64,000 nucleotides of DNA from Candidatus Poribacteria bacterium (lineage in GTDB: Bacteria; Poribacteria; WGA-4E; PCPOR2b). How positions within the stretch are numbered: the stretch's first letter is position 1; the number at the start of each line of letters is the position of its first letter. Of the stretch, positions 39,660 to 62,500 are shown one piece after another. The notes beneath the pieces were generated by a model, which did no database searches, was not told the origin of the DNA, and was given only the letters and a program-made list of their open reading frames with translations. Both the position numbers and the translations under genes were made by a program. The stretch covers positions 42,429 through 106,428 of the forward strand of contig OZ244825.1 in the NCBI GenBank assembly GCA_965220385.1. The letters are read 5' to 3'.

Positions 39660-39866
39660 AACCTAAGTTGCTAGTTATGGAAGATGTTGTAAAACGGGAG
39701 AATGGGAACTGAATAAAGCCCATTACCTGCTCGCGGTGGATTGACAAATCCACTGCACACGTACAAAGATGGCTCCGTTCCGCCTGTCCCGATCTTATCG
39801 GGGAGAGTCCGAGACTTGGATATGGCTATCCAAGCCGAGCGGGTTGGCCGACTAGCAACTTGCGTT
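39660..39866. mobile_element. MITE copy 2 (207 bp) carrying a nested 42-bp insertion
   Basis: Same TIRs and body as 11622-11786, plus an insert at 39775-39816; lies between convergent genes. Confidence 0.85.
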
Positions 39867-39874
39867 CTTATAGG

Positions 39875-41035
39875 CTAATTTTTGAATGCAGGCATGACCT
39901 CTTTGGCGAACCGGTCTAACTGCTCCAAAATCACATGCTCTGGTGTGCCCACCGCGTTGTTGACGGTAACCTGATTAAGCCCAGGGTAGCGTTCCTGAAC
40001 ATCCATCAGTTTTTCAATAATTAGCTCCGGTGGCCCGCACAACCACGCACCCGCTTCCACGGCATCTTGGAGCGTTGGTAAGTTGGCGGTGCGTGCTTTT
40101 TGCGGATCTGCGGTCGCCGCAATCTGCTCGTCCGTCAGACCGCGCACAAACCCCAAGGGTGCGAACATTTTCATGTGTTCTTCGAAGTAGCCATTTGCCT
40201 CCTCGATCGCCTGTGCTTCCGTGTCCGCAATATGGTAGGAGAAGCCGATAATAAGGTCACCACCAAGTTCCATTTCCCTGCCGTGGTTGGCTTGTACCTG
40301 CTGCCAAGCGCGTATCACTTTCTCTGCAGCACCACCGGCCGCGGCACCACCGCCGATCATACCCTTGATGCCGTGCTTCGCCATAAGGTTCAGCCCACGC
40401 TCACTTGCACTGACAATAGGCTGCCAACACTCAACAGGTAGGTTGAGTGGACGCGGCACTAAAGTAACCTCCTCCAATTCATAACCACGATACGGAACTT
40501 TGGGCGGGATGTCATAATACTTGCCGTGATGGGAGAAGGAGGACTCATTGAACGACTTGAAGATGATCTCAATCTGTTCCTCGAACATCTCGCGATTGGC
40601 GTCTCCATCAAGCAGAGGCGCACCAAAGACCTCGACTTCGCGCGTATGATAGCCTCGGCCCACGCCAAAGACGATCCGTCCGCCTGTGAGGAGATCCGCG
40701 GTTGCGTAATCCTCTGCCAACCGCAGCGGGTGCCACATCGGTGTAACGTTGAAAGCACAGCCGATCTTGAGGGTCTGTGTTAGATGTGCGAGATGAACAC
40801 CGAGCATCAGGATGTTGGGTATGCACTCGTATCCCTCACGCTGAAAGTGGTGTTCAGCCAGCCAGAGGGTCTCGTAGCCGGCGCTATCCATCAGTTGAGC
40901 AATGGCTTGGGTCTTATCGAATACGGTTGCTATATGTTCGTCGGAGAGCCAGCGCTCGTTCACAGGGGGACCGTCAAGTCCTACATCGTCCAGATCAACA
41001 TGTCCTGCGAATAGTGAACCAAATTTCGTAATCAT
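39875..41035 (-). CDS. Luciferase-like monooxygenase (LLM class flavin-dependent oxidoreductase)
   Basis: WLAEHHF, WHPLRLAEDYATADLLTGGRIVFGVGRGY, FAKEVMP. Confidence 0.92.
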   Translation of the reverse strand: MITKFGSLFAGHVDLDDVGLDGPPVNERWLSDEHIATVFDKTQAIAQLMDSAGYETLWLAEHHFQREGYECIPNILMLGVHLAHLTQTLKIGCAFNVTPMWHPLRLAEDYATADLLTGGRIVFGVGRGYHTREVEVFGAPLLDGDANREMFEEQIEIIFKSFNESSFSHHGKYYDIPPKVPYRGYELEEVTLVPRPLNLPVECWQPIVSASERGLNLMAKHGIKGMIGGGAAAGGAAEKVIRAWQQVQANHGREMELGGDLIIGFSYHIADTEAQAIEEANGYFEEHMKMFAPLGFVRGLTDEQIAATADPQKARTANLPTLQDAVEAGAWLCGPPELIIEKLMDVQERYPGLNQVTVNNAVGTPEHVILEQLDRFAKEVMPAFKN

Positions 41036-41174
41036 CTTTTCTCGTCCGGCTGATCTTGCCCAAACACTGGTTAATCGCCTCTGGGATCTGATATCTACCA
41101 ACAGAAATGCGTTTGTTCCTTGCGAAAGTTTAGAACTTCCGCAAGGTCAACTCCAGGTAAAGCCTACGACACCT

Positions 41175-42221
41175 CTATACTTCTGGTGCAGAAACGCCAT
41201 GGGACGCAGCTGCTTCGACCAATCGATCCCACGTCTTATCTTCGATTGGAATACCGTCTCTCATCCGTTGTTCACGGCTCTGTTCCTCAAACTCGCCGGG
41301 AGCGAATACCTCATCAACGCCGGGTAGTTTTTCAGAGGACTTGATCCATTCTGTAAGATGCTCGATCTCTTCTTGATACACATCAAGATCGATGAAATCC
41401 TGAATTTTGATAGCGATCATCACAATTCCACTTGCACCGCGGGTGGGTTCCTGACGGCTACAGCCCGCCCACGAAAGCCCGCCGGCGATAGCGTCAATCA
41501 TAAACCCTAAGCCGAAACCCTTGTGTCCGAACTGAAAGCCGCCTACCGGCATCACCGCTGTATCGTCATGGCGATCTATGAAAGCGTTCGGATCAGTGAC
41601 CGTCTTGCCTTCCGAATCGATCATCCATCCTTCCGGCATCTCTTCGTCGCGAGCGCGTTTGACTAATATCTTCCCGCCTGCAACAACGCTCAGTGTCATG
41701 TCGAGCATCAACGGTTCCCCATGTTTGCGTGGGACTGCGATTGCAATCGGGTTGGGTGGAAGCCTTCGGGATGTACCGCCAAAGGGGTGCATAAACCGTC
41801 CTCCACCATTCAGGAAGACAAGCCCGATCATACCCTCTTTTGCGGCAATTGTGGGATAAGTTCCCATCCGTCCAGCGTGGCCACAACGGTGGAGTCCAAC
41901 CCCGCCAAATGTGTGGTTTTTCGCTTTTTGGACTGCCATCTCCATCGCCTTCTGAGCGATCACCATGCCGAGTCCGCCGTTAGCGTTTATCACTGCCGTT
42001 GCAGGCGTCTCGCGGACAATTTCCATCTTATCCGTCGATGCACCGCCGCTCATACCGCCTGCGTAGTTGGGTGCGTTAATCACGCCGTGCGAATCGTGCC
42101 CCATCAAATTGGAATCTACTACATGATTGCTGACTATACGGGCATCTTCCTCGACACCGCCGGCGCCGATATACATATCATAAACAAATTTCCTTAAAAC
42201 CTCATGATTAACTGTAGGCAT
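41175..42221 (-). CDS. Ldh_2 family (malate/L-lactate/sulfolactate-type) oxidoreductase
   Basis: GHDSHG, HAGRMG, PNPIAIAVP, GHKGFGL, PGEFE. Confidence 0.9.
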   Translation of the reverse strand: MPTVNHEVLRKFVYDMYIGAGGVEEDARIVSNHVVDSNLMGHDSHGVINAPNYAGGMSGGASTDKMEIVRETPATAVINANGGLGMVIAQKAMEMAVQKAKNHTFGGVGLHRCGHAGRMGTYPTIAAKEGMIGLVFLNGGGRFMHPFGGTSRRLPPNPIAIAVPRKHGEPLMLDMTLSVVAGGKILVKRARDEEMPEGWMIDSEGKTVTDPNAFIDRHDDTAVMPVGGFQFGHKGFGLGFMIDAIAGGLSWAGCSRQEPTRGASGIVMIAIKIQDFIDLDVYQEEIEHLTEWIKSSEKLPGVDEVFAPGEFEEQSREQRMRDGIPIEDKTWDRLVEAAASHGVSAPEV

Positions 42222-42376
42222 AAAAGCCCTCCCTATTCATACTTTTTATGATTTTCCCAGTAATCGCAACTGTCTCGTCATTATAGCACTGCACCATGGC
42301 AAACTCAAGGACATTATCCTGTTGATCGAGGGTAATTCATCGAGGCATATACACAATTTAGGCAAATCCTCTCTCT

Positions 42377-43456
42377 CTATTGGAACCTCGGTTGCCTCGG
42401 TGCACGATCTCTCTCTAACCGCAGTTTGGAACCCTTTAATGGTAACTGAACCCTTGCCCCATTCTGCAAGTGGGACTCCATAAACGCAAAGATCAGTTCT
42501 GTGCTGGCATGTGCCACGCGGACACCGCATCGTGACGGTTCACCGGTATCGAGTGAATGAACCAAATCTTTGATGAGGTTCGCCGTGCTGCTACTGCGCT
42601 CAAATTCCGGGAAAGTCTCCGGTACAAGGCAACCTCGCCAGCCCGGAACATCAGCTTGCCGTCGGATATGCCACTGCCAACCGTTATTCCAGCACGTCAC
42701 CGTTCCACTATCACAAATTGCCTCCCACTCGCTGCCGCGCGGAGAAAGCAGCGCATGCGCCGTGACACCATTTTCAAATTGAATCATGCCCTGACCGTTC
42801 GGATCTTCCCGAACGATGTCACCATCGAAGATACTGTCGTCGTTGGTGATATGTGCGGATGCCCACAGGGCACGGCGGTCACTGTTTAGACGTAGGATTA
42901 GATCGAACTGATGACTCGAACCGTTAAAGAGCGAATGGTTGCCGTAGATGATTAGCGTTTTGAGTGCTCCCAGTTCACCACTATCGATAACCTCCTTCAT
43001 CTTGTCGAAGCCGCTATGCCAGCGACGATTCGTTCCCAAGTTGAAGAAAGCGTCGTTACGCTCCACCGCTTCCACCATGGCGTCCGCCTCGTCCATAGAA
43101 GCCGCCATCGCCTTTTCTGCGTAAATTGCCTTGACCCCGTGTTCTACAGCGTGGATGACCACTTCGGCGCGGTGCTCCGGCTGGGTTGCGACACTCACGA
43201 TATCTAAGTTCTCTTTGTCAATAAGTTCTTGATAGTCAGTGTATTGTTGCTCTTTTGGCACATCGTACCTTTCTCCGAAAACCTCCATTACATCTGGGCG
43301 CAGATCCGAGCAAGCGACAAGGTCTACCCGTTCTTCCTCATAAAAGCCCGCTGCGTGTGAGTATGGCAACCGAATCGCCTGATAATCCGGAACTTCATTG
43401 TCAATAAATGCGCCCATTCGGCTACAACCGATCACAGCAGCACGATAAGTTTTCAT
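42377..43456 (-). CDS. Gfo/Idh/MocA family oxidoreductase
   Basis: AAVIGC, DIVSVAT, AEKAMA, NRRW. Confidence 0.88.
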   Translation of the reverse strand: MKTYRAAVIGCSRMGAFIDNEVPDYQAIRLPYSHAAGFYEEERVDLVACSDLRPDVMEVFGERYDVPKEQQYTDYQELIDKENLDIVSVATQPEHRAEVVIHAVEHGVKAIYAEKAMAASMDEADAMVEAVERNDAFFNLGTNRRWHSGFDKMKEVIDSGELGALKTLIIYGNHSLFNGSSHQFDLILRLNSDRRALWASAHITNDDSIFDGDIVREDPNGQGMIQFENGVTAHALLSPRGSEWEAICDSGTVTCWNNGWQWHIRRQADVPGWRGCLVPETFPEFERSSSTANLIKDLVHSLDTGEPSRCGVRVAHASTELIFAFMESHLQNGARVQLPLKGSKLRLERDRAPRQPRFQ

Positions 43457-43523
43457 TTTTTCCCTCCATTGTTAAGATGCAAAACCTATTCTCTCGCGAC
43501 GGATCTCATCAAAGTGTGGCGGT

Positions 43524-44972
43524 TCACTCAATCCCATACTCCTTCCACCGCTTTTCTACCAGATCGATGATTTCCTGAGACATCGTAATCTCATCGGGCC
43601 ATTCACGCTGATAGCCCTCTTCGCTCCATTTGGTCGTGGCATCAATCCCCATCTTTGACCCCGCTCCCATTAACGGTGCAGCGTGATCAAGTACATCGAC
43701 GGGTCCCTCAACGATTGTTACGTCTCGCTTGGGGTCAACATTGCTGCCAACGCGGAAAAGCACTTCATCGACATTTTGTACATCAACATCTTTGTCGACA
43801 ACGATGATAATCTTGCTAAACATCAGTTGGCCAAGCCCCCATAGGCTGTGCATAATCTTCTTTGCATGGTAGGGGTAGCGTTTGTCGATAGAGATCAGAG
43901 CAAAGTTGTGGAATACGCCGAAAAGCGGCAGGTTCATATCGACCAATTCCGGCAGCTGTGTCTTAATCAATGGCATGAAGATTCGCTCTGTTGCCTTACC
44001 CATGTAGCAGTCCTCCATCGGCGGTTTGCCGACAATAATTGTCTGATAGATGGGACGTTTACGGTGTGTGATAGCGGTGATGTGAAAGACAGGATATTCG
44101 TCTGCAAGGGAGTAGTAGCCGGTGTGATCGCCGAAGGGACCCTCAATACAGATCTCGTCCGGTTCGATGTATCCCTCAATCACGATGTCGGCATCTGCGG
44201 GGACCGACATATCGATTGTTTTACACGGGACCATCGGTACATTGTCTTTACGAAGAAACCCTGCAAACAGGAGTTCATCAATACCACTTGGAAGCGGCGC
44301 AGTCCCGATATAGGACATAACCGGATCGCCACCGATAGCGACAGCAACCGGCATCCGTTCTCCCGCCTCGCGGTATTCGCGGTGATGTCCGGCACCATCA
44401 TGGTGAATCTGCCAGTGCATTGCCAACGTGCGTTCATCCAGTTTTTGTAGCCGGTACGTGCCAACATTGCGTTGACCGGTTTTCAGGCTATGCGTGAAAA
44501 CCTGCGGCAGGGTAATATATCTGTCCGCATCGAGGGGCCAACATTTGATGAGCGGGATGCGATCTAATGAAATATCTTCGTCAGTCCAAACTACCTCCTG
44601 ACATGCACCGCGTTTGACCGTTTTCGGGGGAAATTTCGTGAGTTTGCTCAGAATGCCGAGGAGTTTCACCTTGTCGAGCAGCGATTCTGGCGGACCGAGT
44701 TGAATCATACCTTCAATTTCATCGGCGATTTCGTTCATGTTTTCAACGCCGAGTGCCATCGCCATCCGCTTATAGGAACCAAACGCGTTGATCAGCAGCG
44801 GCATGTCGCTGCCCTCGACTTTTTCGAACAGTAGTGCCGGGCCTTCGGCTTTACTCACCCGATCGGTGATCTGTGTAATCTCAAGATCTGGTGAGACTTC
44901 GGCTTTGATTCGCTTTAGTTCGCCCGCTTTGTCTAACGCCTTTACAAAATCTGTCAGACTGGAATATGCCAT
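43524..44972 (-). CDS. UbiD family prFMN-dependent decarboxylase (menaquinone biosynthesis decarboxylase type)
   Basis: NVGTYRLQ, MHWQIHH, EGPFGDHTGYY, GKPPMED, GSKMGIDAT. Confidence 0.92.
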   Translation of the reverse strand: MAYSSLTDFVKALDKAGELKRIKAEVSPDLEITQITDRVSKAEGPALLFEKVEGSDMPLLINAFGSYKRMAMALGVENMNEIADEIEGMIQLGPPESLLDKVKLLGILSKLTKFPPKTVKRGACQEVVWTDEDISLDRIPLIKCWPLDADRYITLPQVFTHSLKTGQRNVGTYRLQKLDERTLAMHWQIHHDGAGHHREYREAGERMPVAVAIGGDPVMSYIGTAPLPSGIDELLFAGFLRKDNVPMVPCKTIDMSVPADADIVIEGYIEPDEICIEGPFGDHTGYYSLADEYPVFHITAITHRKRPIYQTIIVGKPPMEDCYMGKATERIFMPLIKTQLPELVDMNLPLFGVFHNFALISIDKRYPYHAKKIMHSLWGLGQLMFSKIIIVVDKDVDVQNVDEVLFRVGSNVDPKRDVTIVEGPVDVLDHAAPLMGAGSKMGIDATTKWSEEGYQREWPDEITMSQEIIDLVEKRWKEYGIE

Positions 44973-45056
44973 TTTTCACCTTGCGTAATGAACGTTGGGG
45001 TGGGAAGGTTTTTCCTATTTTTCCCAGCTGATTTCGGGATGTATGGATGAAGATCG

Positions 45057-46205
45057 TTATCTCTTGCGACCTTGACGATATACCCGCCCGCCTTTTACAA
45101 CGGTAACCGGTACAAAGTTATGTCTGCCGATACGGGTTTCACCACGTGAATCCGCCAATTGGAATTCGCCTTCTCGCAATTCGGAGATGACCGCGTCTCC
45201 CCAAGCGCCGGGTGCCAATGTGCCGATTCTGTCGGACATCAGGATTACCTCTGCCGGAACCGAGGTAACTTTTGCGATGGCATCGTCAAGCGGCATACCG
45301 AGATTGAGGAATTTCGTCACAACATTCGCCAAGTCATAGACGGGTCCGTTAACGTTGTAAATGTGCAGATCTGATGAGATCGTTTGTGGCGCAACACCTT
45401 GATTCATCGCGGTTTCAACGGTATCCCACGAGAACGACCCCGCACCATGCCCCACATCAAAGACAACGCCACGTTCCATTGCCTCATGCACCGACTTACG
45501 CACCTTCCCGTCGTCGTCCAAGATACCACATTTACTCCCGTGAAAGCAGTGAGTCAGGATATCCCGCTCACCCATAACTGCCAAGATATCATCTATCGAA
45601 TCACACCAAGCATCTTGTGGGTGTACCATGATGGGCAGACCAGCTGCATCCGCCGCTTCACGTGCATGATGCAGCGGAATCATCCCCGATCGTTCACTAA
45701 CGATACTGTGCTTTGTTAATCGTACCTTCACTCCCAGAATAATATCACAATGTTTTTCAATCATTGCACAAGCTTTATCCACATCGGCATACTCAGGAAT
45801 CTCGAACTCACCAATTTCTTGGGTCAGCATCCCTTGAGACGATATGTTGATTTGCGCCAAGATGCGCGTTTCGCTCACATCGATCACATACTTCCGAAAT
45901 CCGGGAAAAATATCGGCACCTGCTGAACCCGCATCAACAACCGTCGTTGCTCCTTTTGCCAAGCAGGTCGGGTCTGGTTCTATACCAAAATGACTGACCC
46001 CATAGAACACATGAACGTGCAAATCAATCATGCCCGGTGTTACGAGGCAGCCACTAGCATCCAATACCTCAAGTGCGTCCGTCTTTGAGAGGTCGTCCCC
46101 AACCTCGGTAACAACGCCATTTGAAAAGGCGACATCTTTATTTGCGTGAATATTCTGTGCAGGATCAATCAGTGTCCCGCCTTTGATTAGCAGATCGTGA
46201 GCCAT
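45057..46205 (-). CDS. Amidohydrolase (dihydroorotase-like/deacetylase family)
   Basis: PGMIDLHVH, DAGSAG, GVKVR, LTHCFH, FDVGHG, ISSDLH. Confidence 0.9.
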   Translation of the reverse strand: MAHDLLIKGGTLIDPAQNIHANKDVAFSNGVVTEVGDDLSKTDALEVLDASGCLVTPGMIDLHVHVFYGVSHFGIEPDPTCLAKGATTVVDAGSAGADIFPGFRKYVIDVSETRILAQINISSQGMLTQEIGEFEIPEYADVDKACAMIEKHCDIILGVKVRLTKHSIVSERSGMIPLHHAREAADAAGLPIMVHPQDAWCDSIDDILAVMGERDILTHCFHGSKCGILDDDGKVRKSVHEAMERGVVFDVGHGAGSFSWDTVETAMNQGVAPQTISSDLHIYNVNGPVYDLANVVTKFLNLGMPLDDAIAKVTSVPAEVILMSDRIGTLAPGAWGDAVISELREGEFQLADSRGETRIGRHNFVPVTVVKGGRVYRQGRKR

Positions 46206-46250
46206 ATTGTAACCTCCGAACTATTTTCAGTCGTTTAGTATCACGTTAGG

Positions 46251-47390
46251 TTAATCCATAAAAAGATGGATCCCCCGTGCTCTTAGTACATGAATATGAT
46301 ATTTGATAGAGTCTTCGTTCAAGGGGTTGGAGGCCAAGGAAACAATATCACCTTGTCCAAGCCCCGGGTTATTGACCAAAGGAAGAATATCGTGAATTTG
46401 ATTTCCACTCAGGTGGAGTTCATATAAACCTACCAGTTTTGTGAGTGGGCTTACATTGTTAATCCGATTTTTTGCGATATAAAACCATTTCAGATTTTTT
46501 AGTCCAGCGAGAGGGGTTATATCGTGGATTTGGTTTTCCGTTAGCTCAAGCCGTTCGAGGTTTGCCAATTCTGCAAGTGGACGAATGTCGTCGATCTGAT
46601 TTTTATTCAGATTAAGCCGAAACAGCTTTTTCAGTCCGGCAAGCGGACTCACATCGCGAATTTGATTTCCTTCTAGGTACAGTCTCTCTAAAATTTCTAA
46701 CTTTACAATGGGACTTATGTCGCGGATCTGATTCTCATCCAGATAAAGCCATTTGAGGTTTTCTAACCCTCCTAATGGCCGAATATCGCGAATCTGATTC
46801 TTCGGTAGATCCAGACTCTGCAAGTTGGTCAACCTTGCCAGCGGACGTATATCGCGAATCTGGTTATTATTCAGATAAAGTCGTTCCAGATTTATCAATC
46901 CAGCGAGCGCCTGAATATCACGGAGTTGGTTATTGTTCAAGTCGAGTCGTTCCAGACTTACCAATCCAGCAAGCGCCTGAATATTACGAATCTGATTATT
47001 GTTCAAGTCGAGCCATCGCAGGTTCTTTAGCTTTGCGAGTGGACTAATATCACTGACTTGATTGTTGCCAAGATCAAGCCACTGCAGGTTCGTTAACTTT
47101 GTGACTGGGCGAATATCTGTGACCTTTATGCCAATCAGGCTAAGATGCACCAGATCTTTACAATGCTCCAATCCAGACAGATTGGTGATTTCTGTGTGTA
47201 TCGCTGAGAGATGTGTAAGTGTCGCTAAGTCGGTATCAGTAAGTGGATCGGAAGGAATACCTAACTTGGTTCGAAGCACATCTTCCAGGTTTGCATCGGG
47301 GATATTCACTGCTACACTGACTGCACTGGGACTCAAAGCCGCTTGTGAGCCAAATATAAAAATCAATAAGAATACACGGAATACAGACAT
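46251..47390 (-). CDS. Secreted internalin-like LRR protein
   Basis: Signal peptide, IPDANL cap, about 13 22-aa LRRs (LxxLxLxxNQIRDIxPLAxL), LVNNPGLGQGD C-cap. Confidence 0.88.
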   Translation of the reverse strand: MSVFRVFLLIFIFGSQAALSPSAVSVAVNIPDANLEDVLRTKLGIPSDPLTDTDLATLTHLSAIHTEITNLSGLEHCKDLVHLSLIGIKVTDIRPVTKLTNLQWLDLGNNQVSDISPLAKLKNLRWLDLNNNQIRNIQALAGLVSLERLDLNNNQLRDIQALAGLINLERLYLNNNQIRDIRPLARLTNLQSLDLPKNQIRDIRPLGGLENLKWLYLDENQIRDISPIVKLEILERLYLEGNQIRDVSPLAGLKKLFRLNLNKNQIDDIRPLAELANLERLELTENQIHDITPLAGLKNLKWFYIAKNRINNVSPLTKLVGLYELHLSGNQIHDILPLVNNPGLGQGDIVSLASNPLNEDSIKYHIHVLRARGIHLFMD

Positions 47391-47459
47391 TTCATCTGGA
47401 TTATTTCGGAAGTAGAAACGATATGCAACCACAAGCAACATGTTAAGCAGATAAGATAT

Positions 47460-47691
47460 TATACCCCAACTCAGGTTTGAAAACAAACCTTTGGATTTAG
47501 ACGTGGGGTCATTTAATTTTACTGTAGGAGGGATCTCCGAATCTCCCGATTCTCGGGATTCTCGCCTGTCCCGATGTATCGGGGGAACGGAACCGACATC
47601 TCACTGTAGGCGTGATCTCCCGGTTGCGCCTTTTCAAACAAAATGGGTAATAAGCCGAAAACTGAATAACCCTAATTTAGACGTGGGGTAT
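47460..47691. repeat. Composite REP/MITE-like repeat cluster
   Basis: ATACCCCA...TGGGGTAT inverted ends; 15-bp direct repeat ATTTAGACGTGGGGT at 47495 and 47675; two CTGTAGG-led hairpins; nested CTGTCCCGATGTATCGGG. Confidence 0.6.
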
Positions 47692-48018
47692 TGGTTAGAT
47701 GAGAAATCATAATTGACCATTTTTCCGTTGCAAGGTTATGTGATGTGTGCTATAATGGGCAAAGCATCGGTTTTTCAAAACACAGTTGCTTGAATTGTCT
47801 TGATATAAACACTACCGCATTCCCAGGATTGAATTAATGAATTACACTACAATTTGTCCTGTTCTATAGACGGTGAGGGTAGGATCGTTCATTCCTGTCC
47901 TCTGAGTTATGGAGGGCCTGTATTACCTCCTTTGAATTTCTGGTCTTAAGGTTAGCGGATGCCGTTAACCACTCCCCATTTTTACTTGTGGGGATACGCT
48001 CAAAGGAAGGGAACAAGA

Positions 48019-48666
48019 ATGAACTTGCGGGATATTTCTCTGGGACGCCATGCACCCTCAATTATCAATGTTGTTATTGAGGCACCAAAGGGGAGTAGGA
48101 AGAAGTATAGATACCACGCAAAAAGCCGAAAATTTCGATTAGCATACGAATTTAGCATGCCAGTACCAACAGAATACGGTTGGATTCCACAAACAGTTGC
48201 TGAAGATGGGCACTTCTTGAATGCAATGGTAATTGCTACTAACGCGAGCCACCCCGGCTACATCTGCGAAGCGCGACCCATCGGTGTACTAAAACGTAAA
48301 GACAGAGACCATCACGTGATCTGTGTGATGTTGGGCGATGAACGTTACACTTCGGTCAAGGACATTTCTGATTTAGATGTTAACTTACTAAAAAAAATCG
48401 TCCAGTTTTTTGAACCCTATTTTGAACTATCCGGTTGGTTAAATAATGCCGAGACAGTCGAAGTAATCAAAAAAGCACACGAAGTATACATGGCGGACCC
48501 GAAGTCCCGAAACCCCGAAGCGGAAACAGACAGCGATTCTGGAGACGCAGAAGAAACCGAAGGCTTCGACACAGACTTTGAGGAAACGAACGTGCCAGAA
48601 GAGGACACTGAACAGGCAGACCGTGACGACCAAGGAGAGGCGGGAGATGCCAATTCCGACAATTGA
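48019..48666 (+). CDS. Family I inorganic pyrophosphatase homologue with degenerate active site and acidic tail
   Basis: VVIEAPKGSRKKY, YGWIPQT, ARPIGVL, VKDISDL, FFEPY align with Ppa, but DGDPxD reads DGHFLN; Asp/Glu-rich C-terminal ~50 aa. Confidence 0.75.
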   Translation: MNLRDISLGRHAPSIINVVIEAPKGSRKKYRYHAKSRKFRLAYEFSMPVPTEYGWIPQTVAEDGHFLNAMVIATNASHPGYICEARPIGVLKRKDRDHHVICVMLGDERYTSVKDISDLDVNLLKKIVQFFEPYFELSGWLNNAETVEVIKKAHEVYMADPKSRNPEAETDSDSGDAEETEGFDTDFEETNVPEEDTEQADRDDQGEAGDANSDN

Positions 48667-49684: not shown

Positions 49685-49702
49685 CGAAACCGCACCCCGT
49701 AG

Positions 49703-50983: not shown

Positions 50984-51307
50984 TCTGAACTTTCCTCTGA
51001 TTTTAACGTCAATAACTTAAGCATTTACGTTTTGTGAATTGAGTGAAAGCCGGCGTGATGATTATCTGTGGCTTAAAATATGTTGAAGATACCAGGCACA
51101 GCGGGGTTTCATCCGGAAAATCACCGATAGATTGTATAAGGGCGATTGTGCTCCGCTTGAAGGCTTTATATGCTTGTGGTATAATTCCGAGATCGGTAGA
51201 CATTGGACCATTTTATCATGAATCTGAACGTATTTGGAGTGTTATTGAATAGATTTGACCAAAATCGGGAAGAACGTGTCCAGTCGTGGGAGCGTAGGCG
51301 CCGAATA

Positions 51308-54300: not shown

Positions 54301-55339
54301 AGCCGATAGCAACTTCATCTGGATGGGCAGCCGCAGCGGTCTCAGTCGTTATGACATGCGTAAAGATAGCTGGACGGTATATACGGGGAGGCGCGCCCTG
54401 CCCGCAGAAGTGGTACATGCGGTCGCTGTTGATTCGCGCTATGTTTATTGTGGAACAGAGCGGGGTGCAAGGCGCTACGATAAGCAGAATGACTTTTGGC
54501 TACAGAAGCGCATCGTAGAGGAGCCCGTGAACGATCTTGCTGTTGATGATAAATACTTGTGGATAGCAACCTCCAAAGGCGTTACCCGGTTCGATAAATC
54601 CGCGCATTGGGCAGACCTGCACGAGGCTGAAAACGGCTTGGCTGATACATTCGTCAAAGTTGCTGATGTAGAGGGACGCACCTTATGGGTCGGTACGGAT
54701 AAGGGGGTGAGCAGATACAATACGCTTTCGGACGACCCGAATGCTTGGGATAGCTTTAGGCGCGCTGACGATGTGGACACTATGTTATTGTCTCAAGAAT
54801 ACGCCAATAGCCTCATAGATAACCGAGTGACCAGTATAGCGGCAGGAAATCGTTACGTCTGGGTGGGGACGGAGAGAGGTATCAGTCGTTATGACATGAA
54901 GAAAGAGGTCTGGGTGACCTACGCACGGCAGGAGGGATTGCACCACGATAAAGTAAGTAGTATCTGCATTGACGGCGATTGGGTTTGGTTCGGTACGGAG
55001 GCAGGTGTCAGCAAGCTAAACACAAAAACGGAAGAATGGAGTGTCTTCACATCGTCTGACGGTTTAGCCAGCGATCAGATCACCAGTATCATTGCAAATG
55101 GTAACTTCGTGTGGTTTGGTAGTTTCGATGCTGGCGTGTCACGCTACAATAAGATGACGATGAAGTGGCAACACTTTACCCAAAAAGATGGACTTAGCCA
55201 TAATCGGGTGTTTGCGCTTGCCGTAGATGGTGATTTCCTTTGGGTGGGGACGGAACGTGGGCTGAGTCGGCATGACACAGTGACAGATACGTGGACAATC
55301 TTTACTCCACATTTCGATGAAGAAGAAGACCGAAGATGA
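51308..55339 (+). CDS. Giant multi-beta-propeller lipoprotein 1 (two-component regulator propeller-type repeats)
   Basis: Lipobox FPIGC; about 28 repeats of YTxxDGLxxNxVxxIAVDxxxVWFGTxxGVSRYDKxxxxW; no kinase domain. Confidence 0.85.
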   Translation: MTFGWWWFIVILSFPIGCMFIIPDETPEANDPAAPWKSTELLSDQVNAIAADAQHIWVATDKGINRFNKRENLWISYTVEDGLANNKVSSVAVDGNTIWFGTESGVSKYQPRIDKWTTYTRDDGLPSNRVMAIGVDGNYIWFGTDKGLSRYNKAIDVWALRTTDDGGLTSNEISAIAVEAEYVWFATDKGVSRYDKKIDSWTQLTKSAGLADDNVTTIAIDEDFIWFGTQNAGVSLYSTTEQTFVKTYTRTDLLETDKINYVLVDGLYVWIGTANEGVQRYIKPVDTWVHYRIEDGLPSSNITAMVVDGQYVWFGTYEDGLARFDKIHGLWNIVKKAEGLVSDNIRSIVEQDGVLWVGTAMGLSRFDLQSGEWRTYTKAQGLTTNYITRVIADGDTIWVGTSKGVGRYQSDQWKFWNRQHGLPSDFVLDIAVVDQMVWVGTRAGLWQYNRESDKWRIAEHLKGMRINAIAIDTNSLWFGTDRGLIQFIDGHFTFHTSHLSLHINTIANEKNILWIGTRNGLSMFDKRERRWHHFTTEDGLPNNNVRTLAITEDALWVGTPSGLGVLPRNRWSPSTIKSEDWRQFDLTQPGVVMGHENVRDICVMDNQVWLGTIGGLGVYSQQDNAWRSIRAKERTVVLRHRGIQHTELDGDWVWFLAWENTSNGEIIRYDKRTRTWTHYMKEDVTENHREDSHQPVRDSRHVGKRNLHPSTPNEETPYIAQIDWMDVTNDSVWFATDGGVLAYYKESDTWRHYTTKDGLAANKTTTLMVDGNDVWVVLRDNRICRYRRDTDGWETHQVVFKEISPDMESYRTRLAADRRYVWVPAQREGVARYDKQNETWKRYTSADGLQDDSVGFVVVDNNDVWAYGGWGGGLSKYDANTDSWVIINSSKGLVADQIREVISGVDYMWVLYNQSWWEGDDTVPASGFHRANHTWQVFRGHPESVGNNFRDVQETTEFVWFGSEEHGISRYDKASSSWTVFTKEDGLLDNRINYPTLKADSNFIWMGSRSGLSRYDMRKDSWTVYTGRRALPAEVVHAVAVDSRYVYCGTERGARRYDKQNDFWLQKRIVEEPVNDLAVDDKYLWIATSKGVTRFDKSAHWADLHEAENGLADTFVKVADVEGRTLWVGTDKGVSRYNTLSDDPNAWDSFRRADDVDTMLLSQEYANSLIDNRVTSIAAGNRYVWVGTERGISRYDMKKEVWVTYARQEGLHHDKVSSICIDGDWVWFGTEAGVSKLNTKTEEWSVFTSSDGLASDQITSIIANGNFVWFGSFDAGVSRYNKMTMKWQHFTQKDGLSHNRVFALAVDGDFLWVGTERGLSRHDTVTDTWTIFTPHFDEEEDRR

Positions 55340-55499
55340 TTTTAAAATAGAACGTTAGAAGGTTGGACTTTAAAGGGATTCTTCTCGCGGCGGGATCTGA
55401 GTCAAGACATAGCAGAAGAAACACACTATTTCACGGTTTTGGAAAAGCGTCTTGAGTAAAGGACAGCAACCGCTGTTTCTTACAGAAAGGCACAAAAGG

Positions 55500-58400
55500 A
55501 TGCGTCAAGTTCATATAATCTTAGGTTTCATGATACTCCTGTTTTTGGCGAATTGCGCCACACATGACCCACAACAGGTGCATCCTGATCTTTTCGTCGA
55601 TGAAGACGGCAGCATAATCAGCCAACTCCTCAGCGACCGCGTCCTATCCTTAGCTGTTGATTCACGCTATTTGTGGGTTGGGACCGACCGTGGGTTGAGT
55701 CGATACGATAAGATGCAAGGTCGGTGGCGTAATTTCACTGTAAGAGACGGTTTGGCTCACAACCACATTTTGTCCATCGCTTTGGACGACCTTCAGGTCT
55801 GGATCGGCACACGCGACGGCGTGAGTCATTACGCGATGGACACTGATAGATGGAAGCGCTACATGCCCCGTGATGGCTTGGCGGGTCGTGAGGTCTCCTG
55901 CATCGCTGTTGATTCGAGATTTATCTGGTTCGGCACGCCAAATGGACTCTCTCGGTATGATAAAGAGACGGACAGTTGGGCGCAGAAGCGCGAGAGTGAT
56001 GGACTTGCGGGTGACTTTGTTACGCAGATCGTGATAGATGACGATTACATCTGGGTCGGTACCGAGAACGGAGTTTCCAGATATGACAAACTTACCGATT
56101 CATGGAACAACTATGACAAGGAAAGTGGACTTATTGATAATAGCGTGACTGCAATCGCCGCCGATGAAGATTCCGTCTGGTTTGGTACGGAGAATAAGGG
56201 GCTCAGTCGCTACGACCAACGGAATTCGGAATTCGTCAGAGCGTACACAAAAAGGGATCGATTGACGAGTGATCAGATAAACGCGCTGGCAGTCGATGGA
56301 ACGTCACTATGGTTAGGGACTGCCGATAGTGGTGCGCAGCGCTACATTTTATCTGTCAATACGTGGCGAGAGTACGCAACAGAAGTGGGGTTACCTTCCA
56401 ATCATATTACGGCAATTGCTGCCGATGGCAACGTGGTCTGGTTCGGCACGTACGAGCATGGACTGGTACGATATGATTTACGTCGTGAACAATGGAGGAT
56501 TTATGGCGAAGTTAAAGCGTTGAGCGACAATGATGTAAAGGACATTTTAGTGACGGATGAGTCCGTTTGGGTGGCAACACGATCCGGCTTAAACCAGGCA
56601 ATCTACCTCGAAAATTCGAACTTTTCAGCGGGGCTTAATTGGAGGACGTTGAGCAAGGCAGAAGGTTTGGCGGATAACTACATTACCGCTGTGGTGGAAG
56701 TGGGAAAAGATTTGTGGGTTGGCACACCTCGCGGTTTGGGAGTGCGACGCGAGGGCGAGGACAAGTGGATATTTTTTACAGAGAAAGACGGATTGCCGCA
56801 CGACTTCGTGACCTGCGTTGCGTGGGAAACGGTGAATAGAGGTGTGGAGAGGACATCTTTACGTCTATGGATTGGGACAAAGGCAGGGCTTTCGACCTAC
56901 GATCCTCAAAGCCGAAAATGGAATACACCTCCCTCCGAATTGCAAACCTCCGGTTGGATCAACGATATCAAATTAGAGGAGAACTTTGTCTGGGTTGGTA
57001 CGACAGAGGGACTCGTCTACTATGATCGGTCTACCCGCACTTCGGGTACACTGACTGAAGCGGATGGGCTACCCTCAGATGTGATTAACACTGTTGCAAT
57101 AAAGGATAATTCTATCTGGATCGGCACAATATCCGGTTTAGTACAGATAGACAGGTCGATAATCACACCTTCCGTCCAAGGATCCACGTCCCGCTCCGCC
57201 TGTCCCGATTCCATCGGGGAGGATTCCGATGGAACTGGAGCAAGCGGGATTTCACGTTTCACGCCTCATGCCAACGTCAGGGCAATTACTGTTGATGACG
57301 ATACCATCTGGATAGGTGGGCCGTCGGGATTGGCAAAGTACGATACTGCAAAAGATCTGTGGACACATTACACCCGCGAGAATACCAACGGGGGACTCAT
57401 CTCCGATAATGTTAAGGTCATTTCAGAAGGCAGCGGTAAGCTTTGGGCGGGTACAATCGCTGGGGTCAGTTGTCTGGACAAAGAGACAGGCAGCTGGTCG
57501 AAACACGTTGCAGCGATGACAACAGAGGTGCTGCACTCGAATTGGGTCAGCAAGTTGGCGGAGGATGGGAGCGGACTCTGGTTTGGCAATTGGAAGGATT
57601 CCACAGAAGGCGCAATTGTAAGGTATGATAGACAGACAGACACGTTCCGCTTCTTTAGCAAAGATGACCTTCCATTGAAATCTATTGAGAGACCGATCAC
57701 GCGCATACACGCGGTGACTGTGGATGAAAGTGAAGTATGGGTCGGCACCAATGGTGGGCTATTACGCTACGATAAAGAAACGGATACGTGGCGTCATTAT
57801 ACTATTGAAGACGGTCTGCCAAACAATGAAGTTTGGACGATTGTTCTTGATAGTCAATATCTCTGGACAGCGCATATTGGTGGTGTAGTAAGTCGTTATT
57901 CACTTGAGACGGATACATGGAAAACCTATGAAATTGTGCCGAGCGTAGAATGGAGTAACATTGGGACCATCGCTATTGATCCTCAATATGTCTGGGTGAC
58001 AACGGTTTGGGAGGGAATTAAGCGATATGATAAATCAACGGATCGGTGGAGCAGTATTACGGAAGCACACGGTTTGGGGAACAATGAAGCCAATGACTTG
58101 CTCGTTGATGGCGATTATATCTGGGTCACGGGTTGGGGGGATGCTAGCCGTTATGATCGGCGAACCAAAGAATGGGAGATATTCTCAAGTCAGCATGTAC
58201 TCTCAGATGTGAATTTCGGGATCGATAAGGGACAGGATGGTGTTTGGCTTACATACTCGGGGTGGAGCGGCGCGCTTGCGTCGAAGTATAACAATAAGAC
58301 CGATTCGTGGACAACATTAAACCTCCCGGAGATTGAAGGGCTTGATTTTGGACGTACAAAACAGGTTGTTGAGACCACGGATACTGTTTGGTTTGCGGCA

Positions 58401-59576
58401 GATCGTCAGGGGTTGGCTCGGTATAACAAAGCTGCAAAGGATTGGGCATTCTTCGGTGAGGAGAACGGACTGCCAAGCAGTGACATCATCGAACATTCTT
58501 TGGTGGTAGACGATGATTATGTTTGGGTGGGGACCGCTGGGGGATTGAGTCGATACGATCCTAAAGAAGAGGTCTGGACCACTTTCACGCAGTCTCCATT
58601 GGCACGAACGCTCCGCGAATCAAAAGTGTACGCAATCGCCGCCGAAGCGCGTTATGTATGGTTGGGGACAACCAACGGCTTACATCGCTACGACAAACAG
58701 ACAGATCGTTGGTTTGCTCCTCGTCTGAAGGGGCTGAAAGATATGGAGGACGACACACCAAGTGTCACCTGCCTAACGATTGACGAGAAATATGCGTGGC
58801 TCGGTACTAACACTGGTGTCCTGCGCTACGATAAAGCCGGTGATCGTTGGGAAAAGTACACCGTTGAAAACGGTTTGCCTTCCAATACCATCCGAGATCT
58901 GGATGTAAAAGGCTACGACTTATGGGTCTCTACAGACCGCGGCGTTGCGACGTTCAACCGTCTGTCTGATGATCCGAATGCTTGGGAGTCGCACACACAG
59001 GCACTGGAGGTCGAAGGTATGGGAGCCGATAAGAAATATGCCCAAACACTTCTGAGCGATGATGTCCGTTGCGTTGCGATCGGTGAGAAGTTGATCTGGT
59101 TCGGCACAGACAAAGGGGCTTGCCGATATGATAAAGATAAGAAGACATGGGAAACTCTTGCTAAAAATGTTCCCGCCCTTGATAAGGTGGAAAGCCAGAA
59201 CGATCTCACAGACACTAGCGTCATTGTCATTGATGAAGGGGACATCTGGTTCGGTACGGGTAAGGGAGCGACAAAATACAGCGTCGAATCTGGGGATTTC
59301 GTTATCTACACTCAATCGGACGGTTTAGCAAGCGATATTGTCACCTGTATCGCTTTGAATGGGGAGGACATCTGGTTCGGTTCGGCGGATGCAGGCGTCA
59401 CACGGCTGGATAGAAACACGGGTGACTGGCGTGTCTTTAATATAGACGACGGCTTGTCCCATAATCGAGTTGAAGCAATCGCAGTTGACGGTGATCAGCT
59501 CTGGTTTGGGACAGAGCGGGGCTTGTGTCGGTACAATCAGAAAACTGGGACATGGACAAGCTATGCTGAAGATTAA
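55500..59576 (+). CDS. Giant multi-beta-propeller lipoprotein 2
   Basis: Lipobox FLANC; same repeat and collinear landmarks as 51308..55339. Confidence 0.85.
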   Translation: MRQVHIILGFMILLFLANCATHDPQQVHPDLFVDEDGSIISQLLSDRVLSLAVDSRYLWVGTDRGLSRYDKMQGRWRNFTVRDGLAHNHILSIALDDLQVWIGTRDGVSHYAMDTDRWKRYMPRDGLAGREVSCIAVDSRFIWFGTPNGLSRYDKETDSWAQKRESDGLAGDFVTQIVIDDDYIWVGTENGVSRYDKLTDSWNNYDKESGLIDNSVTAIAADEDSVWFGTENKGLSRYDQRNSEFVRAYTKRDRLTSDQINALAVDGTSLWLGTADSGAQRYILSVNTWREYATEVGLPSNHITAIAADGNVVWFGTYEHGLVRYDLRREQWRIYGEVKALSDNDVKDILVTDESVWVATRSGLNQAIYLENSNFSAGLNWRTLSKAEGLADNYITAVVEVGKDLWVGTPRGLGVRREGEDKWIFFTEKDGLPHDFVTCVAWETVNRGVERTSLRLWIGTKAGLSTYDPQSRKWNTPPSELQTSGWINDIKLEENFVWVGTTEGLVYYDRSTRTSGTLTEADGLPSDVINTVAIKDNSIWIGTISGLVQIDRSIITPSVQGSTSRSACPDSIGEDSDGTGASGISRFTPHANVRAITVDDDTIWIGGPSGLAKYDTAKDLWTHYTRENTNGGLISDNVKVISEGSGKLWAGTIAGVSCLDKETGSWSKHVAAMTTEVLHSNWVSKLAEDGSGLWFGNWKDSTEGAIVRYDRQTDTFRFFSKDDLPLKSIERPITRIHAVTVDESEVWVGTNGGLLRYDKETDTWRHYTIEDGLPNNEVWTIVLDSQYLWTAHIGGVVSRYSLETDTWKTYEIVPSVEWSNIGTIAIDPQYVWVTTVWEGIKRYDKSTDRWSSITEAHGLGNNEANDLLVDGDYIWVTGWGDASRYDRRTKEWEIFSSQHVLSDVNFGIDKGQDGVWLTYSGWSGALASKYNNKTDSWTTLNLPEIEGLDFGRTKQVVETTDTVWFAADRQGLARYNKAAKDWAFFGEENGLPSSDIIEHSLVVDDDYVWVGTAGGLSRYDPKEEVWTTFTQSPLARTLRESKVYAIAAEARYVWLGTTNGLHRYDKQTDRWFAPRLKGLKDMEDDTPSVTCLTIDEKYAWLGTNTGVLRYDKAGDRWEKYTVENGLPSNTIRDLDVKGYDLWVSTDRGVATFNRLSDDPNAWESHTQALEVEGMGADKKYAQTLLSDDVRCVAIGEKLIWFGTDKGACRYDKDKKTWETLAKNVPALDKVESQNDLTDTSVIVIDEGDIWFGTGKGATKYSVESGDFVIYTQSDGLASDIVTCIALNGEDIWFGSADAGVTRLDRNTGDWRVFNIDDGLSHNRVEAIAVDGDQLWFGTERGLCRYNQKTGTWTSYAED

Positions 59577-62500
59577 TAAGAGCACGAAAGTTCAGATAAA
59601 TCGAGAATCCTCGCATAGCAGGACGGAAAGACGACTGTTGTCTCGTTATTTCGTTGTTTTTCTATTTTATTTTCAGGTTTTCGCCCTACTCTTTCACTTT
59701 GGGTGTGGTTTCACCCAAATTGATTCGCGTGACGAACAATCGGCGGCGCTGGAAGAAGCAGCGATTACCCAAACAGCGACGAAACAAGCGTTAGTCAGCG
59801 ATAATGTCCGTTGTATATCAACCTCCGCTAACCAGGTTTGGGTAGGGACAGATCGGGGTGTCAGCATCTATCATAAAGTGGATAACCGTTGGACAAAGTT
59901 AGACCGGTCCGATGGGCTGCTCTCTGATGACATTACTGCCATCGCCGTCGACGGGGAATCTGTCTGGATAGGTACGACACTCGGTGTCAGTCTTTATGAT
60001 CCCAATGCAGCGGAACGTTGGACAAAGTTCCAACAACGGGACGGCATAGCAAGCAATAGAGTCACTGCCATCGCTGTGGATGGGAATCATATCTGGGTGG
60101 GGACCGAAGCGGGTATCTCGCGTTATGATAAGACGACAGGGGCGTGGGCGTTACAGCAAGAGAAGGATAAAGATTCATTTAACGTAGTCACGGCAATTGC
60201 TGTCGAATCCGAGTATGTTTGGTTCGGTACAGAAGACGGTCTCCGTCGATACGACAAATCCAAGGACGCGTGGAACACTTATACAAAAGAGGAAGGGTTG
60301 GTAGAAAACCATATCCGCTGGATCGCTTTAAGTCCTGACGCTGCTTGGGTGGGTACGGAGAAGTCAGGTGTAAGCAAGTTCAGTACAATCAACCAGACCT
60401 TTACTGAAAGCCATACCCGAACGGATCTTATAGAGAGCGATTTCATTAGAGCGATTGCGGTTGATGGCGACAACGTCTGGTTTGGTTCGGCAGACCGCGG
60501 AATTCGACGATACATTACAACGGTGGATACTTGGCTTAAGTACACGACAGCACAAGGTTTGGTCAGTGACCACATTACCGCGTTGGTTGTTGATGGTAGG
60601 AATATTTGGATTGGCACATACGAGCACGGTCTGGGCCAATACGATAAGGTGACAGATGGATGGACATGGTATGCCAGGCGCGACACGCTGGTATCGAATC
60701 AGATTCAATCACTGGTTGTAGCTGAGAATGCACTCTGGGCAGGTACAAATAAAGGTCTGAGTCGCTACGCGCTTTACGAAAAAACGTGGAGAACCTACAC
60801 CAAAGCAGATGGCTTAACAACCAACTATATTACCGCTTTGGCAGGGGGCGACGACGGGGCACTCTGGGTTGGAACGGCCTTGGGATTAGGAACACTCGAA
60901 GGAGAACGGTGGCGTTTCTACACCGAGCGGAATGGATTGGCAGACAATTTTGTTACCTGTATTGACCTTTCCGATAAGATCTGGGTCGGGACGAAAGGTG
61001 GATTAAGTGCCTTAATACAAGAACCCCTAACCTCTTCGTCACAATCGGGGAAGGTCGAGCAAATTCCGACAAGGCGAGGATCCTCGCAGAGCGGGACAAG
61101 AAGTCTTCACGAATCTACGCACATCACCGCGAATCAAATAAGTGTAGATGATTCACGAGGCTCGGCGAATGGCTCTCGCGTTTCACGTTTCACGTTTCAC
61201 GTTTTGCGCCAACCCTATCTCACCGGCAAGTGGGTAACAGCAGTGCTGGCAATTGGTGAGGAGGTTTGGGTGGGAACGACAGAAGGGTTATATCGGAGAG
61301 GTGCTACGAGGGATAAATTTGAACCGTTTCCCCCGATAACGGGTTATGTCAATACACTTACGTTCAACCCGGATGGAAGATTGCTAGTCGGTACTCGGAA
61401 TGGGTTATGGATTATTCGCCCCCCCTTTTATCGCCCCGATAGCGGGGGGATAAGGGGCGTAACCCACATTACCGATGGTCTGCCAAACCTGAATGTCCGG
61501 GCTATTGCAGTAGACAAAGAAACCGTCTGGATCGGGACACCGGCTGGAATTGCACGCTCCGATGGAGCCAGAATTCAACAGGTGTTTACGATGCAGCCAG
61601 AGGGTTTGCTGCACAATAATGTTCAGGGTATCGCTGTTGTGGGTAAGCAGGTCTTTTTCGGTACGGTTGCAGGCGTTGCTGTCTATGACGTAGAGAAAAA
61701 TTTGTGGGATAAGCATACCCCATATCGTGATACAGAAATTCTGAGAGAAGATCAAGCGCGTTGGATGGAGTTAGATGGGCACTATCTGTGGGTGCTTAAC
61801 TGGGCGGCTTCCCCGAATGGCGCGATTTTAAAATTCGATCGCCGTACCGATACGTGGATAGAGTACACAAAGGACGCGCTACCCATCTCATCCGAAGTCC
61901 CATTTATCACCGCAATTCGACGGTTAGCGGTGGGGACAGAAGACGTCTGGTGTGCGACGGGGGATGGCGGCGTGCTGCGATACAACAAAGCCTCTGATAC
62001 ATGGACGCACTTCACAAGATCATCGGGCCTGCCGGGACATCATGCTACACTCATTGAACTTGATGAACCAAATGGCGTTTGGGTTGCCTTCCAAGGCGGC
62101 GTAGCAGCGCACTATGATACGCGGACAGAGAAGTGGCAATCGGTGAAGGTGACGGAAGCAGGTCCCGGTAGGTACATCGAAGATATTGCCTGTACGAAAG
62201 ATTATGTCTGGTTTTCCACAAATGGCGTTGGGGTCAAGAGATATGAGCGGACGACGAAAACTTGGCGCTCATACACGGAAGCGCAAGGTATGGCTTCTCG
62301 CTCCGGTGAGTGGATTGCCGCGGACGGAGAGGGAGTGTGGACCAGCGGCGGAAGTTCTTATTCGTGGGTCAGTGACCGGGGAATGAGCGGTGTGAGTTAC
62401 TATTCGCTTATCGACGATACTTGGACAATCTATGATAGGCGCAAGGGGCTGCGGGTTAATTGGACGGGGTCCGGACAGGTCAGCGAGAACTACGTCTGGT

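Follow-up and report, generated by a model that had tools for sequence, protein, structure and literature searches.

The 64,000-nt stretch analysed here (hereafter the window, G000:C1:42429-106428) belongs to the 6.36-Mb, two-contig genome of a Candidatus Poribacteria bacterium, G000, and carries three copies of a very small tagged hairpin, unit A. The unit of insertion is 20-21 nt long and has the form CCTG-YCCCGAT-loop-ATCGGGG, or equivalently GCCTG...GGG. Unit A enters its hosts as an exact block, in a single orientation, at TCCCG^A (the caret marks the insertion point), with a duplication of at most one G. On balance, it is probably a non-autonomous mini insertion element resembling repetitive extragenic palindromes (REPs) and small dispersed repeats (SDRs), and moved in trans. 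The original prediction, made from the letters of the window, described an 18-19-nt palindrome inserted into a ~21-nt host repeat, itself inserted into MITEs (miniature inverted-repeat transposable elements), REPs and genes. The finding is confirmed as robust, and its scope is wider than this prediction had seen.

The three copies in the window stand out by their core, TCCCGAT-N2-4-ATCGGG, which occurs three times where 0.02 occurrences are expected; none of 100 shuffles reaches three. All sequences quoted in the original prediction are found at the positions it gave. The sites and their hosts are:

39783..39803, + strand: case-1 unit A, T-type, 21 nt with a 4-nt loop; CCTG tag and hairpin TCCCGAT-CT-TATCGGGG
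39775..39816, + strand: 42-nt composite in which unit D (~21 nt) holds unit A; CT ambiguity at its ends
39660..39866, + strand: filled MITE copy; terminal inverted repeats 39660-39675 and 39851-39866
11622..11786, + strand: MITE copy lacking the 42-nt composite, with the junction GATGGCT|TGGATATG at 11730-11744
47565..47584, + strand: case-2 unit A, T-type, 20 nt, within D-like sequence in opposite orientation, TCTCG^GAACGG
47510..47674, + strand: 165-nt composite repeat with the case-2 unit A, flanked by a 15-nt direct duplication
57199..57219, + strand: case-3 unit A, T-type, 21 nt, in frame in the Reg_prop gene 55452-59576
57188..57232, + strand: D-like host stretch around the case-3 unit, GTCCCGCTCCG ... 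AGGATTCCGATGG, in a hypervariable in-frame insertion hot spot
61078..61097, - strand: sequence loosely related to the D-like host, GTCCCGCTCTGCGAGGATCC as reverse complement, within the paralogous neighbour gene 59470-63858

In case 1, unit A interrupts unit D at CGTTCCG^AGAGTCC, and the emptied site is an exact 24-mer with 7 or 11 genomic occurrences, according to which of two equivalent deletion registers is chosen. The 42-nt composite separates the MITE copy 39660-39866 from the copy 11622-11786, in which, as predicted, it is absent. The CT ambiguity noted in the original prediction is visible at the ends of the composite; other genomic MITE copies also lack this block (query positions 135-174 missing). 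The insertion of case 2 is consistent with the C^G bond used in case 1, and its emptied 24-mer occurs 3 times in the genome. The case-3 unit is inserted at GCTCCG^AGGATTCC of a D-like stretch, where it codes for most of the segment ..ACPDSIG..; the corresponding site is empty in the ortholog of genome G010. True empty sites thus exist for these cases. The stretch 61078-61097, which had been taken for an empty host, resembles the case-3 host only loosely (by eye, one indel and two mismatches), and the proposed rule that insertions begin directly after a GC dissolves, as the C of this 'GC' belongs to the element itself. The fragments noted at ~3245, ~43490 and ~55375 are degenerate look-alikes that match no unit pattern. 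At 3245-3285 of the window an untagged hairpin, TCCCG...ATGTATCGGGA, is seemingly split at the TCCCG^AT bond by an unrelated 17-nt stretch.

In unit A, an unpaired CCTG tag precedes a hairpin of 5-7 bp, YCCCGAT-loop-ATCGGGG; the whole measures 20 nt when the central loop difference is 3 nt and 21 nt when it is four. The full unit is present in 261 copies in the genome, all of which carry CCTG by definition of the search pattern, and the same pattern read backwards is found 0 times. The core hairpin CCCGAT-N2-4-ATCGGG occurs at 629 sites, 290 of which are preceded by GCCTG[TC]. The unit is largely extragenic, with 16 of the 261 copies in long open frames, though these cover 79% of the genome.

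The boundaries of the unit follow from its empty sites. When candidate units are deleted from 298 sites and the joined 12+12 flanks are sought among all genomic 24-mers, the dominant deletion corresponds to the element plus one G, and an exact empty site is found for 147 of the 298 sites. An unbiased census of segments of 8-120 nt that are missing elsewhere between the same, directly joined 13+13 flanks yields 4115 indel groups, or 3364 once those with more than six equivalent positions are removed. The top 20- and 21-nt classes of this census are the CCTG-tagged units and unit D. The following units are census classes:

Unit A: GCCTGTCCCGATTYATCGGG
Unit B, C-type: CCTGCCCCGATCYTATCGGGG
Unit C: GCCTGCTCYCGGCTTGTCGGA
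Unit D, the ~21-nt host of the original prediction: AGTCTCGGACTCTCGGAACGG
Unit E, 18 nt: GCCTGCTCYCGCTTCTTA

Units A, B, C and E have the start (G)CCTG in common. Peeling of CCTG...GGGG units from the genome removes 261 copies and exposes 59 new complete units and subsequently 6 more (65 in all), by which the size proposed earlier is corrected to 20-21 nt. A 19-nt boundary and two other readings expose 0 new units each, and a 21-22-nt boundary exposes only 8, compared with 65 for the 20-21-nt reading. As single-stranded DNA, unit A folds with -4.5 kcal/mol (z -2.2) and the C-type unit B with -7.1 kcal/mol (z -3.7), while the folding of units C, D and E does not exceed that of shuffles. The census also contains size classes of 51, 66 and 102 nt (133, 189 and 106 groups), which match the 20-21-nt classes in frequency and may represent tandem repeats or further small mobile units.

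The target is well defined. For 202 T-type copies the logo reads T.90, C.80, C.91, C.85, G.97 ^ A.85; with one representative per flank class (n=52; classes defined on outer flanks only, 36 of the 52 being singletons) the corresponding values are.77,.71,.85,.81,.94 ^.73. The tabulated flanks are therefore non-random. Of the 261 copies, untagged hairpins host 74, tagged units 39, the junction TCGGG^GAT 55 and unit D 14, with 79 elsewhere; at 247 of the 261 sites the ~21-nt host is missing, so that the inner unit is separable from it. Orientation is strict: nests within tagged hosts are same-orientation in 39 cases and inverse in 0, and in one family of MITE-end hairpins 12 members are filled in the 5' half and 0 in the 3' half, with 66 empty. 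Of the copies hosted by unit D, 12 lie in one orientation and 2 in the opposite one, and either orientation fits the same C^G bond.

Since the T-type unit contains TCCCG|AT, its insertion destroys the old target and at the same time supplies a new one. Later copies can consequently land in earlier ones, and stacks grow from the centre, as in TCCCG-CCTGTCCCG-CCTGTCCCGATTCATCGGGG-ATTCATCGGGG-ATTTATCGGGG. Nesting reaches four or more levels, deeper than the three originally claimed. The loop sequences of inner and host units are identical in 31 of 125 pairs, with 37.6 expected if they were independent, so the host does not serve as template for the inner copy. Related units occupy other positions in the stacks. 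The C-type (CCTG-C-CCCGAT), a one-base variant, contains no TCCCGA, and its copies (n=59) favour TCGGG^GAT, the right-hand junction that remains from an earlier insertion. The CCTG^TCCCG joint of unit A is where most copies of units C (43 copies) and E (20 copies) are found. Of 112 occurrences of CCCCCTGACAAG^GGGG, 53 are filled by unit F, composed of TGGTACA and an untagged hairpin (~23 nt), and 22 are plainly empty. Examples of unit F are seen at G000:C1 414600-414680 and 407580-407680, and its empty form at one orthologous site of genome G009.

Filled/empty polymorphism, which the original prediction proposed to look for, is abundant: it is seen among the sites of the deletion analysis (147/298), in a REP of a Phycisphaerae genome, described below, and between orthologs. 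The host gene of case 3 (55452-59576) encodes a Reg_prop beta-propeller protein of 1374 aa, for which 14 orthologs were aligned. At the insertion spot, G004, G005, G007, G008 and G015 contain nothing, G010 and G009 contain the D-like stretch without unit A, and G000 and G011 contain the D-like stretch with a 21-nt unit A, the tag in G011 being mutated to CCCG. A different set of small repeats is found in G001 and G013, and unrelated insertions in G002, G012 and G014. This loop (57150-57260) is an in-frame insertion hot spot, the unrelated insertions being lysine-rich. Behind 57176, 9 extra bases, CCGATTCAT, are present in three metagenome runs and in G009 and G011.

A second comparison isolates a single unit. 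In a syntenic 20-kb block, G000 has 8 units, G009 has 4, and G011 and G010 have 0. At G000:C1:~414630 the filled site reads catcccg[CCTGTCCCGATTCATCGGGG]atttatcggggg, and the orthologous empty site of G009 reads catcccgatttatcggggg; the wider context is ...gtggtacatcccg[CCTGTCCCGATTCATCGGGG]atttatcggggg... in G000 and ...gtggtacatcccgatttatcggggg... in G009. Both flanks align over hundreds of bases with ~88-92% identity. The pair represents gain or seamless loss of exactly one unit since the sister species split. It sits in a repeated unit, as CCCCCTGACAAG occurs 112 times. The metagenome runs that contain the stretch of the window are labelled sponge, marine or coral metagenomes. Four runs, represented by assembled contigs only, which break at MITEs, list no allele of 20 or 21 nt for the three sites of the window; contigs from three runs span case 3, where no indel is listed. 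The skips in these data at the MITEs, of 42 nt and other lengths, have short sides and high depth and thus probably derive from other MITE copies.

The mobility of the outer levels is less uniform. Exact unit D is found 26 times in the genome, 13 empty and 13 filled; its left flank is ..GGCT in 25 of 26 cases, and its right flank starts with TTGGAT in 20 of 26 and with CCCGATAA in the other 6. Because these flanks are nearly always the same MITE sequence, mobility of unit D in its own right is not demonstrated, and one insertion or deletion within the MITE family would account for the pattern. Cases 2 and 3 are hosted by diverged D-like stretches. The carriers 39660-39866 and 47510-47674 resemble MITEs: the former has 16-nt inverted-repeat arms that are 88% complementary, and a BLAST search with it returns 139 pieces genome-wide. 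The 165-nt composite 47510-47674 is bracketed by the duplication ATTTAGACGTGGGGT at 47495-47509 and 47675-47689 and is missing at the orthologous site of G011 and G009, which demonstrates mobility at the MITE level. The case-2 unit is carried within this mobile composite and thus arrived as a passenger. The predicted hierarchy therefore stands for the hairpin and for the MITE, and is not supported for the ~21-nt host in between. A 99% identical copy of the composite, with a CTTG variant of the tag, is present at G000:C1:4524678-4524830. The 15-nt duplication ATTTAGACGTGGGGT, single at the orthologous site of G011 and G009, is unusually long for a MITE; at the copy near G000:C1:~4524678 the duplication is seemingly shorter, ~8 nt by eye.

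Across 40 relatives, unit A occurs in 17 of 19 congeneric species, in 4 of 5 further genera of the family and in 1 of 16 genomes drawn from three further families of the order, with the reversed control at 0 everywhere. In an evenly drawn sample of 150 other genomes of the phylum it is found in 20 of 25 genomes of family f1, 2 of 10 of family f3 (1-2 copies each), 0 of 100 of family f2 and 0 of 15 of the remaining families. Copy number is highest in G000 (261), the next being 121 and 114. In a public species collection at least 89 stretches contain the unit, against ~0.5 chance matches expected by a rough calculation. Most of the records listed are titled Candidatus Poribacteria; other titles among the matches listed are Parapedobacter, Phycisphaerae, Thermodesulfovibrionia, Caldithrix abyssi, Marinilabilia, Flavobacteriaceae, Bacteroidales, Bacteroidia, uncultured Bacteroidetes and Clostridia. 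Copies lie on different contigs in five genomes reached from records titled Parapedobacter (4), Phycisphaerae (8), Thermodesulfovibrionia (15), Caldithrix (11) and uncultured Bacteroidetes (4), with a control of 0. The unit is thus shared with at least five other lineages beyond Poribacteria. A scan of viral contigs gave one match only.

In the Phycisphaerae genome the 20-mer splits one REP copy, which flanks a gene for a 200-aa Y1 protein, and a sister copy of the REP is uninterrupted. This pair identifies the unit as a discrete insert in another phylum too. As the original prediction held, the inner hairpin is a discrete, site-specific insert, and its hosts include small repeats, MITEs, a gene and, in this other phylum, a REP. 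In Parapedobacter (G041), the four copies lie at the same place in four paralogous open frames of 404-455 codons, each of which adjoins an open frame of ~1100-1200 codons.

No report of this element was found in the literature searched, a search that did not include Elhai et al. 2008 (Genome Res 18:1484) itself. The core sequence, used as literature text, returned two unrelated papers only, and a search for Poribacteria together with repetitive elements returned nothing relevant. The closest analogues in behaviour are the SDRs, and the closest in anatomy are tagged REPs. SDR4, SDR5 and SDR6 of Nostocaceae are reportedly 21-27 nt long and nested. Insertion of SDR5 is precise and falls between bases 3 and 4 of the highly iterated palindrome HIP1, according to the excerpt consulted of PMC4390886. 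SDRs and unit A have in common a size of ~20-27 nt, the absence of coding capacity, a short target that is entered precisely at one fixed bond, and no known transposase; like SDRs, the 20-21-nt copies of unit A are dispersed and precisely inserted, as seen in its orthologous and paralogous filled/empty pairs. Unit A differs from SDRs in its phylum, its CCTG tag, the target inside the element and the letter-identical copies in several phyla, a distinction that is drawn from descriptions and not from sequence comparison.

Tagged REPs are hairpins of 20-40 bp with an unpaired GTAG or CGTC tag that are described in eight phyla, sometimes inside genes or other palindromes, such as GTAG-23 of T. roseum (Di Nocera et al. 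2013, PMC3733652, in the part consulted). Like these, unit A is a short hairpin with an unpaired four-base tag, a high copy number (261) and a mostly extragenic location. Unlike them, it has the tag CCTG instead of GTAG (GT[AG]G) or CGTC, it does not form the inverted doublets of REPINs (hairpin-forming REP doublets) and BIMEs (bacterial interspersed mosaic elements), and in G000 no gene for a REP-associated tyrosine transposase (RAYT) is flanked by units, nor is there co-distribution with any Y1 subtype. Three of the four features of REP/RAYT membership, namely tag, doublets and RAYT link, are therefore lacking in unit A. Its self-nesting finds no mention in the sections consulted of the REP/REPIN literature (Bertels and Rainey 2011, PMC3116915; Quentin et al. 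2018, PMC6006769).

The likeness of unit A to IS200/IS605 insertion sequences lies in the lack of a target duplication, insertion 3' of a short specific sequence, a single orientation and seamless empty sites, and hairpin recognition is a feature of these elements as well. IS200/IS605 elements and their miniatures have two different hairpin ends and measure at least ~100 nt, whereas unit A is a single 5-7-bp hairpin in 20 nt and shows no clean replichore bias. The tnpA-like genes of G000 have no unit nearby, and no full-length element bracketed by units was found. Unlike a classical MITE, unit A shows at most a 1-nt (G) ambiguity and no target-site duplication of 2 bp or more. The GC clusters or double-hairpin elements of fungal mitochondria are GC-rich hairpins of ~30-80 nt in genes and intergenic DNA, for which no enzyme is known. 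They resemble unit A in being very small hairpins, and differ in being organellar, larger, unrelated in sequence and not known to be defined by self-nesting.

If unit A is moved in trans, a sequence-specific enzyme would act on it, and this enzyme would itself have spread horizontally, because the same 20 letters are found in several phyla. A single-stranded hairpin intermediate may be cut and rejoined, in the way that HUH (His-hydrophobic-His)/Y1 enzymes treat the ends of IS200/IS605 elements and REPs. Such a hairpin-recognising, single-strand cut-and-join reaction of the HUH type is our tentative choice as the best fit to the anatomy of the unit. A wider reading, conceivable though still doubtful, takes the 20-nt tagged hairpin as a complete mobility unit among the smallest known, letter-identical in at least six lineages and served by a horizontally spreading, sequence-specific DNA transferase or homing nuclease. 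The foot base would then set the target (T giving TCCCG^A, C giving TCGGG^GA), nesting would be limitless, and units A, B, C and E would be mutual junction parasites.

Several observations weigh against movement in trans, some of them against an HUH-type enzyme in particular. Known HUH transposition involves two different hairpin ends or REP doublets; unit A, with one hairpin and no doublets, is unlike these substrates, and its neighbours within 150 nt are in the same orientation in 46 cases and in opposite orientation in 2. None of the 9 Y1_Tnp matches in G000 (at least 5 subtypes) has a tagged unit within 600 nt, none of five Y1 subtypes tracks the element over 41 genomes (present in 7, 25, 24, 9 and 11), and the element-bearing Parapedobacter genome has no Y1 match at all. 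The suggestion of an HUH/RAYT-like enzyme in the original prediction thus gains no support from adjacency or co-occurrence. Clusters in G000 are biased in strand (145 '+', 66 '-', 2 mixed), with no clean switch of this bias with cumulative GC skew, as between replichores, and gene orientation leaves it unexplained as well. The flanks in other phyla are mutually unrelated and do not follow TCCCG^A. Half-unit indels are frequent in the census (9 nt, 133 groups; 11 nt, 107 groups), and 227 tagged left halves, from 553 before, are left after peeling, which suggests that slippage or deletion also shapes the stacks. Finally, most hosts are themselves repeats, where recombination could copy filled sites to empty paralogous ones.

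The Y1 subtypes are missing from several copy-rich genomes and present in element-free ones. The Y1 gene of the Phycisphaerae genome was discarded as a partner, since the unit adjoins it only by lying inside that gene's own, different REP. A comparison of 57 neighbouring pairs of units 400-5000 nt apart, as candidates for the ends of a larger element, gave one similar pair only.

The recombination just mentioned leads to the alternative that new copies arise by copying and not by transposition, with a filled site serving as template for gene conversion or template switching at an empty paralogous site. The trigger might be a homing-endonuclease-like nuclease that cuts the intact TCCCG|AT hairpin; as the insert restores the cut site, conversion would repeat and lead to nesting, which is explained equally well in this way and without need of a transposase. 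Flanking homology would fix the orientation, most hosts are repeated and have long shared flanks (113/261 hairpin hosts, 55/261 junction sites), the G000/G009 orthologous pair lies in a repeated unit, and the Y1 adjacency and co-occurrence searches gave no transposase. Nevertheless, at least 52 flank classes, 36 of them singletons, share just the five-to-six-base target, D-type and other targets have no right-hand homology to the hairpin hosts, and the flanks in other phyla are unrelated. The first insertion into each flank class, or into an unrelated genome, would still require another mechanism. Copying is the main alternative, and a rather unlikely one.

Movement through RNA appears improbable. 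A transcribed hairpin might be reverse-transcribed into the target, or might act as guide or bridge for a recombinase, which would agree, indirectly, with the precise, orientation-specific and duplication-free insertion and with the failure to find a DNA transposase. However, the orientation of the element is unrelated to that of the genes: placements are co-directional in 76, anti-directional in 59, divergent in 33 and convergent in 32 cases. A terminator-like or transcription-linked placement is likewise not seen in these counts. In addition, comparison of the window with Rfam gives no family that reaches its gathering score.

Local replication slippage or hairpin-driven duplication, which would build the stacks with no movement between loci, is a very improbable source of the copies. 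The frequent 9-nt and 11-nt half-unit indels (133 and 107 groups) and the orphan halves left after peeling speak for it. On the other hand, the unit at G000 ~414630 carries a CCTG tag, yet the empty orthologous site of G009 offers no CCTG to copy; the inner and host loops are independent (31/125 versus 37.6 expected), and identical units occur in 52 flank classes and in other phyla. Slippage is thus largely refuted as the origin of new copies and remains valid as a secondary process. Equally slight is the probability of a selected functional motif (a protein-binding palindrome or terminator) that merely looks inserted, or of an assembly artefact: the unit is hairpin-shaped, extragenic and conserved across phyla, but nested stacks and in-frame genic copies are unlike a binding site, there is no enrichment between convergent genes or by gene orientation, the filled/empty polymorphism contradicts such a motif, and the unit occurs in many independent assemblies, with three metagenome runs covering case 3 without a listed indel.

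The transfer of very small repeats, including SDRs and many REPs, has been an open question since their description. The present system is clean material for this question, with a fixed 20-nt unit, a five-to-six-base target, strict orientation and one-base variants that have different targets. It further offers hundreds of filled/empty sites, orthologous differences between sister species and representatives in several phyla. The clean unit, target, variants and filled/empty sites make both a search for the enzyme by phylogenetic profiles and an oligonucleotide assay feasible. The in-frame copy in the giant beta-propeller protein indicates that such units add peptide segments to surface-type proteins, and this rewriting of genes by unit A concerns a lineage of sponge symbionts. 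Should the enzyme be new, practical interest would attach to a programmable means of inserting 20-nt tags at short targets.

A few further features of the genome were observed. At G000:C1:3685430-3685860, three untagged core hairpins with a spacing of 206 nt, suggestive of a 206-nt tandem repeat, lie just upstream of a Y1 gene at 3684695-3685345 (NHYH motif). A small Y1 protein with the motif YI[KR]NQETHH is encoded by two intact copies and two fragments at G000:C1:5967264-5969822 and 6012817-6013302; it resembles the non-IS 'subclass 1.2' as described in the portion consulted of Quentin et al. 2018 (PMC6006769). The second contig, G000:C2, has a length of 11,217 nt and a G+C content of 37%, compared with 50% for the chromosome, and may be a plasmid, a phage or foreign DNA.

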